This document shows positions 30,127-32,000 of a stretch of 32,000 nucleotides of DNA, piece by piece (the stretch's first letter is position 1; every line of letters starts with the position of its first letter). Both the position numbers and the translations under genes were made by a program. This DNA comes from Candidatus Saccharimonadota bacterium (GTDB taxonomy: Bacteria; Patescibacteriota; Microgenomatia; UBA1406; GWC2-37-13), in the NCBI GenBank assembly GCA_016700135.1, contig CP065004.1, forward strand, positions 480,001-512,000, in the 5' to 3' direction. The notes beneath the pieces were generated by a model. That model did no database searches. It was not told where the DNA came from and saw only the letters and a program-made list of their open reading frames with translations.

Positions 30127-30345
30127 ATTCTTTTGTTAAATATTAACGGTATGACATTGTACACGATCCGGTATCAGTTTTTCAATGAATATTTAATCAA
30201 GTTTCTTAATTATGTGTTATGATTATGTCTATAGTATTCGTTTTAATGAAGGGAAATATCTGATTTTCCTCTGTATTTTTCGAAATTTCAGGTATACTTG
30301 CAATATCAACGCACATTCTATATACATTTTACGAACGTTAACGTG

Positions 30346-30374
30346 TTGTTATTTCGTGAAGAATGTGGTATATT
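30346..30374 (+). promoter_or_regulatory. Promoter: TTGTTA-17 nt-(TGg)TATATT upstream of the Xer-like gene
   Basis: -35 at 30346-30351. Extended -10 TGGTATATT at 30366-30374. ATG at 30385. Confidence 0.45.
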
Positions 30375-30384
30375 ATAGGCTCAT

Positions 30385-31248
30385 ATGGATGAATATTTTC
30401 TTCCGAAGCTTTTGGAACGATTTGTCTCGTTTCTGAATGACCAGGGAAAATCAAAGTTTACGGTAGTTGCCTACAAGAAAGATATTGAGCAATTTATCGG
30501 CTATTTGGCTTCTCATGAGAAGTCCGATATTCGTGACGTAAAAAAAGAGGATATTGAAGGCTTCATCCAGAATCTGCTTGAAAAGAAATACACTAAAAAA
30601 TCCGCTTCACGTAAGCTCAATTCCATCAGAACTTTTTTCAGATTTTTGAAGCATGAAAGCGTCATCAGTGCAAATCCTGCATTTGACATCTCACATCCGA
30701 AATATGTACAAACTCCGCCTCGCATTCTTTCAAAGATGGAGTATCGTGCACTTCGGGACGTTGCAAAAGAAGATCCCCGCACCTATGCTCTTGTTGAAGT
30801 TTTGCTTCAGACCGGTATTAAGATCGGAGAACTTGCAACACTTCGCGTCGGAGATATCAATAGTAACGTCATTCATATTCAGAAATACGGTAAAAATATT
30901 GAGCGTGATGTCCCGTTGAATAATGCAGCCGCTAAGGCTCTGGAAGTTTATATCAAAGACCGCGGTGAAAATGCTAAATCGGATCATGTTTTTATCACCA
31001 GAACTGGGAATCCGCTTCTTATCAGAAACATCCGACAGATTATTGACCGTTGTTTCCAGGAAGTCGGTATTGAAAATGCCACAGTAAATGACCTTCGCAA
31101 CACATTCATCGCTCATCAGCTGAGAAACGGTGCAACTCTTGAATACATCTCAAATATCGTCGGACACCGACGAATCTCTTCTACCGAAAGGTTTCTCAAC
31201 CTTGTCAAACAGGAAGCAGACCGAAAAGAGAAACTCGGCGAGCTGTAA
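30385..31248 (+). CDS. Tyrosine-recombinase (XerC/XerD)-like protein with substituted catalytic residues
   Basis: 287 aa, collinear with XerD: SAM-like N-domain, then the catalytic-domain blocks. At XerD catalytic positions it has TGIKIGEL (Arg-I -> Lys146), VNDLRNTF (His-II -> Asn235, Arg-II kept), GH (His-III kept) and GHRRISSTERFLNL (nucleophile Tyr -> Phe270, codon TTT 31192-31194). Confidence 0.85.
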   Translation: MDEYFLPKLLERFVSFLNDQGKSKFTVVAYKKDIEQFIGYLASHEKSDIRDVKKEDIEGFIQNLLEKKYTKKSASRKLNSIRTFFRFLKHESVISANPAFDISHPKYVQTPPRILSKMEYRALRDVAKEDPRTYALVEVLLQTGIKIGELATLRVGDINSNVIHIQKYGKNIERDVPLNNAAAKALEVYIKDRGENAKSDHVFITRTGNPLLIRNIRQIIDRCFQEVGIENATVNDLRNTFIAHQLRNGATLEYISNIVGHRRISSTERFLNLVKQEADRKEKLGEL

Positions 31249-31266: not shown

Positions 31267-31680
31267 ATGAATATTACAGTCCACACAGACGGCGGCTCAC
31301 TCAATAACCCCGGACAGGCCGCAATAGGTTTTCATATAGATGAAGGATCCCGCAGAATTCATGACCACAGTGAAGCAATCGGTATTGCCTCAAACAACGT
31401 TGCGGAATATACTGCGCTTATTCGTGCTTTGACCTATCTGAGAGATAAAATAGCTGTCAAAGAACTGAACGTAGAACGAATTCTTGTCATCGCGGACTCT
31501 GAACTTATGATCAAACAGGTCACGGGACTCTACAAAGTCAAAAATCCGGATATCCGCACGCTTTTTAATCAGGTAAAAGTCCTCGAAATGGAACTTGGAG
31601 TCCCGATTTCTTACAAGCATGTTCTTCGCGCAGAAAACTCAGAAGCAGACGCCCTGGTGAAAAAAGCTCTCGGCAGATAA
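31267..31680 (+). CDS. rnhA: Ribonuclease HI
   Basis: 137 aa. DGGS..NPG (Asp), NNVAEY.AL (Glu), ADSEL (Asp) and SEADALV (Asp) form the DEDD set. Confidence 0.9.
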   Translation: MNITVHTDGGSLNNPGQAAIGFHIDEGSRRIHDHSEAIGIASNNVAEYTALIRALTYLRDKIAVKELNVERILVIADSELMIKQVTGLYKVKNPDIRTLFNQVKVLEMELGVPISYKHVLRAENSEADALVKKALGR

Positions 31681-31786: not shown

Positions 31787-32000
31787 ATGGACCAGCATCC
31801 TATACCACGTCAGATTACGACATTTGAATTTAAACTGATCGGGTTTATGACCCTGAAGCAGTTTTTGTATCTTGCCATTTTCTTTCCGATAGGATTTATC
31901 ATCTATAAAGTAGTTCCCGTTGCTTTTTTGAACGTCCTTCTGGGAGTGCTTGTCGGTGCTGTGGGGATAGCGTTCGCATTTATTCCGATCCAGGACAGAC
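31787..32000 (+). CDS. PrgI-family (VirB3-like) T4SS membrane protein, N-terminal part (runs off the right edge)
   Basis: Manual translation from ATG 31787: MDQHPIPRQITTFEFKLIGFMTLKQFLYLAIFFPIGFIIYKVVPVAFLNVLLGVLVGAVGIAFAFIPIQDR... This is the typical PrgI opening (P..I...E.KL.G..T.KQF.YL) plus a TM hairpin. Confidence 0.6.
   Translation, partial: MDQHPIPRQITTFEFKLIGFMTLKQFLYLAIFFPIGFIIYKVVPVAFLNVLLGVLVGAVGIAFAFIPIQDR

Follow-up and report, generated by a model that had tools for sequence, protein, structure and literature searches.

A catalytically degenerate Xer paralogue kept under strong purifying selection in the Patescibacteria

Introduction

To our knowledge, few bacterial pseudo-enzymes descend from site-specific recombinases, and no role has been assigned to any of them. 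A Xer protein can nevertheless have a DNA-site-bound job other than recombination, for which Bacillus subtilis XerD offers a precedent, since it reportedly unloads SMC at the terminus without catalysis. Here we describe a Xer-like pseudo-recombinase of 287 amino acids, which we name the Asn-type Xer paralogue. Its gene occupies positions 30385-31248 on the forward strand of a 32,000-nucleotide stretch (contig CP065004.1, positions 480,001 to 512,000, assembly GCA_016700135.1), hereafter the window. The window is part of a closed 1,448,136-bp contig, a Roizmanbacteria-type genome. We consider it probable, though by no means certain, that the protein is a catalytically dead but functional Xer paralogue, which binds DNA or serves as an architectural protein without cleaving and whose housekeeping role is tied to replication or division.

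The best sequence and fold matches of the protein are XerC, XerD, XerA and XerH (PDB 1a0p, 5hxy, 4a8e and 5jjv). It has the same two-domain architecture and length, and also in common with them are Arg-II, His-III, the signature residues of the N-terminal domain and the status of a chromosomal, single-copy housekeeping gene. Unlike them, it lacks Arg-I, His-II and the nucleophilic Tyr and belongs to a separate clade, and its gene is origin-proximal rather than terminus-linked, with no associated dif. It scores below the cut-offs of the equivalog models for XerD (TIGR02225, 170.4 versus 329.6 bits) and XerC (TIGR02224, 158.2 versus 335.15 bits), as does the intact Xer of the same genome (243 and 240 bits), and below those for archaeal-type XerA (NF040815, 143.4 bits versus 220) and streptococcal XerD-like/YnbA (NF002685, 41.3 bits versus 178).

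The nearest described analogue is YnbA of streptococci and lactococci, a conserved but degenerate paralogue that lacks two of the R-H-R-Y residues, showed no recombination activity and has no known function (PMC1914069). Both are degenerate tyrosine-recombinase paralogues coexisting with one active Xer, XerS in the case of YnbA. YnbA, however, belongs to a different family, phylum and gene neighbourhood, and it lacks the extreme C-terminus, whereas the tail of the Asn-type protein is conserved. The tyrosine-recombinase fold has also been re-used in the TcpM/MOBM proteins, which are associated with type IV secretion systems (T4SS) and in which most catalytic residues are dispensable (PMC12857230). 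TcpM requires its Tyr, as a MOBM relaxase must have one, whereas the corresponding position here is F270, and there is no oriT or plasmid context. A further candidate relation is the 'Cand' subgroup of Xer-related recombinases specific to candidate phyla, as described in the main text of Smyshlyaev et al. 2021 (PMC8138268). Compared by description, this subgroup may contain the Asn-type family; the terms 'inactive' and 'catalytic tyrosine' do not occur in that main text. Full-text literature searches returned no published description of a catalytically degenerate Xer paralogue in bacteria of the candidate phyla radiation (CPR).

Results and Discussion

Three of six catalytic residues are replaced

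An initial annotation of the window, made from the sequence alone, had aligned the protein block by block with XerD and reported replacement of Arg-I, His-II and the nucleophilic Tyr, retention of Arg-II and His-III, and absence of any Tyr beyond the GH motif. All of these assignments were confirmed. The open reading frame product matches PF00589 with 97.3 bits (cut-off 27.1; E = 1.1e-27) and PF02899 with 62.2 bits (5.7e-17), and HMMER aligns it to the solved structures of XerA (5hxy, 3.3e-27) and XerD (1a0p, 4.9e-21). A SAM-like core-binding domain forms the N-terminal part (residues 9-91, 30409-30657; Pfam Phage_int_SAM_1 at residues 10-91), and a catalytic-type domain with a degenerate pocket follows (residues 115-275, 30727-31209; Pfam Phage_integrase and the XerD and XerA alignments). 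The register with XerA and XerD pairs QTGIKIGEL with ATGLRVSEL, NDLRNTF with HVLRHAF, and GHRRISSTERF with GHSDLSTTQIY. Since this register and the reading of the codons agree, the residue assignment is correct.

The Arg-I position is Lys146 (AAG, 30820-30822), the His-II position is Asn235 (AAT, 31087-31089) and the nucleophile position is Phe270 (TTT, 31192-31194). Asn235 is followed by a family-specific Asp236, the two residues (31087-31092) being part of a VND signature. The beta-hairpin Lys170 (AAA, 30892-30894), which pairs with K172 of XerD, is present, as are Arg238 at Arg-II (CGC, 31096-31098), followed by a further Asn (N239), and His261 at His-III (CAC, 31165-31167). With the pattern K146/K170/N235/R238/H261/F270, three of the six catalytic residues are replaced, the nucleophile included, and no Tyr stands downstream of the GH motif in the translation. 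The protein has the fold of the tyrosine recombinase superfamily, a catalytic domain with a SAM-like N-domain, and does not have the signature of an active enzyme (Arg-I, Lys-beta, His-II, Arg-II, His/Trp-III and Tyr).

The substitutions are fixed and the gene is strongly constrained

We collected 120 database sequences with 70-100% identity to the protein, the named ones coming from Roizmanbacteria, Woesebacteria and 'Patescibacteria group' bins. All 120 carry Lys, Asn, Arg, Asn and His at Arg-I, His-II, Arg-II, the residue after it and His-III, and all have the hairpin Lys; at the nucleophile position 119 have Phe and one has Leu. With K/N/F fixed over the whole family-level clade, the replacements are therefore not sequencing errors, as the initial annotation had argued from their number. 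A single-copy orthologue is found in 40 of 41 relatives from the three families of the order. The ratio of nonsynonymous to synonymous substitution rates (dN/dS) against the two nearest relatives is 0.010 and 0.014, compared with 0.040 for the flanking thioredoxin gene (trx) and 0.045-0.108 for the flanking RNase H gene (rnh); in more distant pairs, synonymous sites are saturated. Within the genus, the protein is 85-87% identical, against 71-73% for the canonical Xer. The gene thus belongs to the single-copy core of its order and is subject to very strong purifying selection, in keeping with the earlier proposal of a domesticated, non-cleaving protein.

The protein might alternatively be an active recombinase or nuclease using a different nucleophile, or else a decaying remnant or a sequencing artefact. 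In favour of activity, the protein still has Arg-II, His-III and the hairpin Lys, and conservation of its pocket motifs is high. There is no Tyr after the GH motif, however, and Cre and Flp mutants with Tyr changed to Phe or Arg-I changed to Lys are strongly defective in catalysis (PMC2943603, PMC4381057). An artefact or pseudogene is excluded because of the 120 concordant homologues and the dN/dS of about 0.01. Taken together, we regard this whole group of explanations as highly improbable.

The clamp fold is retained and the former active-site motifs stay conserved

An AlphaFold2 model built from a 73-sequence alignment reached a predicted local distance difference test score (pLDDT) of 93.2 and a predicted template-modelling score (pTM) of 0.81. 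In Foldseek searches with this model, XerA came first by E-value (7e-17), and the best whole-chain superpositions were DNA-bound clamps, namely lambda Int (1z19_A; TMq 0.79, root-mean-square deviation 2.8 Å), Tn1549 Int and XerH-difH. The predicted structure shows that the full two-domain C-clamp fold of tyrosine recombinases is kept.

Residues conserved in both the Asn-type and the canonical Xers include T26, Y30, D33, R76, K77 and F84 in the N-domain and R174, R214, R238, G260 and H261 in the C-domain. Within the Asn-type family, conservation is highest in the former active-site motifs, which carry new family-specific invariants: V234-N235-D236, where canonical Xers have P-H-T, together with N215, R217 and N79. 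The C-terminal tail (31195-31245), ending in ...KEKLGEL, is near-identical throughout the order (...VKQEAERKEKLGEL). A terminal [ED]-[LIV] is found in 51 of 76 Asn-type sequences and is not the usual ending of canonical Xers. The confidence of the model is lower in this tail, as expected for a segment that tyrosine recombinases donate in trans to a neighbouring subunit. From the model and these conserved residues, we infer that DNA clamping and oligomerisation have been retained and cleavage has been lost.

Chain 14 of PDB entry 9i5v, the 'RaiA' of Porphyromonas gingivalis, also matched. This match comes through an intact XerC-like N-terminal part and is irrelevant to the dead family. The chain is a 401-amino-acid, ribosome-bound protein in which residues 5-282 make up a full XerC-like region whose Arg-I, His-II, Arg-II, His-III and Tyr motifs all align intact, which suggests a recombinase-RaiA fusion or a joined gene model.

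A family with repeated losses of catalytic residues

The family was surveyed by a full HMMER scan of representatives at 50% identity and in a sample of 301 Patescibacteria genomes with a completeness of 80% or more. Members share the signature QTGIRIGEL, (K/T)VNDLR(H/N)TF and GHKRLSTTEKYL, with the C-terminal ending described above. Members occur in 74 of the 301 genomes, including all 16 sampled genomes of the window's class outside the window's own family. Other lineages are all-or-none by family, for example 14 of 15 genomes in f29, which consists of Dojkabacteria by NCBI names, and none in f19 (0/15), f21 (0/10) or f27 (0/10). Neighbours of the family in the protein atlas come from Shapirobacteria, Woesebacteria, Collierbacteria and WWE3. 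Essentiality data from transposon sequencing in Saccharibacteria do not apply, because f29, the non-Microgenomatia family identified by name, is Dojkabacteria, and no hint of a member was seen in Saccharibacteria.

Most genomes lacking the family have a single PF00589 gene, and all 74 genomes with it have at least two, in a tally that took in the unpublished genome G190. On these copy numbers, one Xer is the baseline of the phylum and the Asn-type family an extra paralogue.

A FastTree phylogeny was built from 133 sequences, 76 Asn-type and 57 canonical, leaving out representatives shorter than 240 or longer than 330 amino acids, four truncated or aberrant ones (P0143, P0155, P0157 and P0237) and most close orthologues. 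On this tree, the Asn-type sequences group in a single clade (Shimodaira-Hasegawa-like support 98) apart from the canonical Xers, among them the one from the same genome; P0199 fell among the canonical sequences and is not counted in the clade. In the clade, the His-II site is Asn in 69 of 76 sequences (91%), the rest having mostly Gln, Ser, Lys or Met and in one case His, and Asp236 is present in 96%. Arg-II is invariant in all 76 Asn-type and all 57 canonical sequences. Tyr was lost in at least five separate events (12 sequences with Phe, one with Ile), Arg-I in at least 13 (to Lys, Thr, Leu, Gln or Asn) and His-III in at least four, against no loss of Tyr and one loss of Arg-I among the canonical sequences. 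The hairpin Lys is replaced by Ser or Thr in most family members, and the hairpin is deleted in one family of the order, although the alignment of this loop is less certain than that of the other positions.

The window's order comprises three families, f1 (the window's own), f2 and f3, and the states of the catalytic residues differ among them: K-K-N-R-H-F in f1, with Arg kept at Arg-I in one f1 genus; R-K-N-R-H-F in f3; and R-(no hairpin)-Q-R-H-Y in f2. The f2 orthologues (L027-L032) keep Arg-I and Tyr, have Gln at His-II and carry a six-residue deletion that removes the beta-hairpin of the catalytic Lys. This amounts to a different route to a crippled pocket. The residue states across f1, f2 and f3 place the three substitutions at different depths: the change of His-II to Asn is ancient and family-wide, that of Tyr to Phe dates to about the level of the order (f1 and f3), and that of Arg-I to Lys is later, within f1. 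The three changes were accordingly not one event.

One intact Xer in the same genome and no recognisable dif

The closed genome holds just two PF00589 genes, the dead paralogue and one canonical Xer of 321 amino acids at genome positions 889,161-890,126. The latter carries the motifs STGLRVSEL, GKGGKAR, HVLRHSY and GHKNIATTQIY, with all six catalytic residues (R/K/H/R/H/Y) intact, so that the genome also has an intact Xer paralogue. The two xer genes are 379 kb apart, and FtsK, RuvC and DivIC are encoded elsewhere in the genome.

The dead paralogue could be a non-catalytic partner of the canonical Xer at dif. In such a heterotetramer, the canonical subunits alone would exchange one pair of strands, the dead subunits would provide arm specificity or FtsK-type control, and the Holliday junction so formed would be resolved by RuvC or by replication. 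The presence of at least one further PF00589 gene in all 74 genomes with the family, where most other genomes have just one, is consistent with a partnership, as is the presence of FtsK and RuvC. Established precedents are the XerC/XerD paradigm and, at the sites of CTX phage, XerC-only exchange (PMC3442271). Nevertheless, the two genes are far apart, and searches turned up no site common to both. The canonical Xer, near-universal across the phylum, evidently needs no such partner in the roughly 75% of genomes that lack the family, and in streptococci YnbA/'XerD' neither bound difSL nor affected XerS (PMC1914069). We therefore see a partnership at dif as a possible but rather unlikely alternative.

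Searches for dif itself bear on this alternative. No dif of the Escherichia coli or B. subtilis type was found within seven mismatches in the genome, and the sole match resembling a XerD arm, at 116 kb, follows a sequence resembling a tRNA 3' end. Apart from a CIRCE-like operator, no conserved palindrome was found near either xer gene, and the DNA upstream of the canonical xer, considered as a dif locus, is conserved only among the closest strains.

The initial annotation had pointed to the 258-bp spacer upstream of the dead gene, with two ATTATGT copies (30209-30215 and 30222-30228) reminiscent of a dif half-site and a palindromic cluster AACGTTAACGT at 30334-30344. The length of the spacer and the positions of these elements are correct, but their likeness to dif did not survive comparison. 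ATTATGT is not enriched, with three occurrences in the window against 6.0 +/- 2.3 expected. The nearest relative, whose protein is 99% identical, has changes in both copies and a single one in the ACGTTAACGT palindrome, and in the next relative none of these elements is recognisable. The dif-like reading of the spacer was rejected on both counts. The only spacer blocks conserved among genus relatives are a sigma-70-like promoter, TTGTTA-17-(TG)TATATT, on the forward strand (30346-30374, found by a consensus scan and ending 10 nt before the ATG) and a block near 30156-30185, which is the thioredoxin promoter on the opposite strand.

An inverted repeat upstream of the canonical xer, ATTAGCAGA-N11-TCTGCTAAT, was also rejected as dif, since it is a CIRCE-like HrcA operator that precedes hrcA and clpB as well. 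Between one and four copies of the repeat (TTAGCA-N15-TGCTAA) are present in each of 37 of 41 relatives, and a reversed control gave almost no matches. Copies lie at 888758-888786 of this genome (L001:741-769), at L073:1529-1557 and at L074:1505-1533, and in this genome the repeat precedes hrcA and a ClpB-type gene. The copy about 0.36 kb upstream of the canonical xer is perfect, and its position is kept across the genus. Because of this genus-wide repeat, the intact Xer, or something in its long leader, may belong to an HrcA heat-shock regulon. The stretch of about 0.8 kb before the canonical xer (888369-889160; L001:352-1143) holds no credible gene, its 85-amino-acid open reading frame having no Pfam match, and it diverges fast between strains except for the CIRCE-like repeat and the promoter-proximal 60 bp. 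The sole ParB_N-domain protein of the genome (at 883665-883898) has an open frame of 441 amino acids and lies about 5 kb from the canonical xer.

A housekeeping neighbourhood near the origin

The window starts at the replication origin, because dnaA is the open reading frame at 401-1813 and the cumulative GC skew reaches its minimum shortly ahead of the window, at roughly 470-480 kb of the genome. The dead xer lies 29.6 kb from dnaA. Ten further closed or near-closed genomes, belonging to six families, have the orthologue at 27-125 kb from dnaA, a distance of 2-11% of the genome when 50% would be the farthest possible. Sister genera of f1 have it beside dnaN and an S1-domain gene. Outside f1, the divisome gene divIC (DivIC/FtsB, PF04977) adjoins it in 33 of 36 loci, nearly all divergent (head-to-head), f3 being no exception; in the window's genome, divIC lies at 361 kb and thioredoxin takes the divergent place beside the dead xer. 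A phage or mobile-element integrase would be expected to have a patchy distribution, a tRNA or att context and mobile genes on its flanks. This gene instead has its single-copy orthologue in 40 of 41 relatives, with trx, rnh, dnaN, the S1 gene and divIC as conserved housekeeping neighbours, and none of the contexts looks like a mobile element. This neighbourhood, with divIC head-to-head, the origin nearby and dnaN in sister genera, suggests housekeeping chromosome handling tied to replication or division.

An RNase HI-type gene (31267-31680, forward strand; Pfam RNase_H, 3e-11) begins 18 nt downstream of the dead xer and directly follows the orthologue in 23 of 30 loci of the order. No terminator-like site was found between the two genes, which are probably co-transcribed, judging from this arrangement. 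The DEDD residues of the RNase HI-type protein appear intact by eye (D8, E47, D77 and D128).

The arrangement with divIC, head-to-head and conserved across classes, together with the probable co-transcription with rnh, would suit a transcription regulator built on the recombinase fold that controls its own promoter and its neighbours, divIC in most lineages and rnh here. On the other hand, the spacer holds no conserved operator-like repeat, the 10-bp palindrome at the -35 being broken in the nearest relative and absent in the next, and no palindrome recurs across loci; the f1 neighbours differ, and the protein is still highly conserved. Such a regulator accordingly seems improbable to us.

In 30 of 59 loci, T4SS-like genes are found no more than 1.5 kb from the gene. 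PrgI/VirB3-like genes are near the orthologue in 17 f1 loci, the window included. A VirD4-like coupling protein is near it in 13 loci, which come from f1, from Dojkabacteria and from two further families of the class. In the window, the PrgI/VirB3-like gene (31787-32000 and beyond) opens a T4SS-like module directly after rnh, and the order xerL-rnh-prgI is found in 17 loci of the family. The paralogue might therefore be conceived as a DNA-recognition or processing accessory of a chromosomal T4SS-like system, comparable to the TcpM/MOBM relaxases derived from tyrosine recombinases, all the more so as the T4SS clusters of Patescibacteria lie near dnaA and dnaN and mostly lack a relaxase (PMC12102498), and as TcpM requires only its Tyr (PMC12857230). 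Having no Tyr, however, the Asn-type Xer paralogue cannot be a covalent relaxase. T4SS are widespread in the phylum (PMC12102498), against 74 of 301 genomes for the family, the T4SS neighbours often lie on the opposite strand or beyond intervening genes, and both gene sets may merely share an origin-proximal location. We judge a T4SS accessory to be about as improbable as a regulator.

A proposed non-cleaving DNA-binding protein

The losses of the nucleophile and of Arg-I were recurrent and independent and took place under strong purifying selection, which argues for a selected function independent of strand cleavage. In the mechanism that we propose, the Asn-type protein would clamp specific or structured DNA, would probably oligomerise via its conserved C-terminal tail, and would act as an architectural or bridging factor rather than as an enzyme.

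Several points weigh against this proposal. We infer DNA binding from fold and conservation only, and no DNA target was identified, with no palindrome recurring near the gene across 63 loci and no dif site found in the genome. The FastTree phylogeny has many weakly supported inner branches. Most family members outside the order keep Arg-I, Arg-II, His-III and Tyr, so that DNA nicking or cleavage may persist in the ancestral family, whose function may not be the one that the clades without Tyr have. In this genome divIC is 149 kb from the dead xer, and the linkage to divIC and to the origin could be inherited synteny without functional meaning.

The model of B. subtilis XerD does not carry over in its details. 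Searches of this closed genome yielded no SMC hinge and no ScpA, and just eight of the 301 sampled genomes gave a match to the hinge; an SMC-unloading role is thereby excluded, and condensin seems to be missing from nearly the whole phylum. With this in mind, the non-cleaving role might be extended to the entire Asn-type family as an undescribed chromosome-handling factor of Microgenomates, Dojkabacteria and WWE3. A recombinase tetramer would there have been turned into a non-cutting, site-specific DNA bridge or clamp near the origin, coupled to the divisome through divIC or to an essential T4SS-like machine, in a phylum almost without SMC condensin. We offer this extension as a speculation that is unlikely to hold in full, even more so than the partnership at dif.

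Conclusions

A deep branch of the CPR keeps a dead Xer as a core gene, under tighter constraint than the genes around it and, at the level of the genus, better conserved than the real Xer. Databases call such proteins XerC, XerD or 'tyrosine-type recombinase/integrase', at the risk of their being miscounted as active recombinases or as markers of mobile elements. Most of the lineages concerned are not yet genetically tractable, and the repeated loss of the nucleophile and other catalytic residues amounts to a natural experiment, indicating that the conserved function is not recombination. The DNA targets of the Asn-type Xer paralogue could bring to light a hitherto hidden part of how ultra-small bacteria without SMC organise and segregate their chromosomes or control division.

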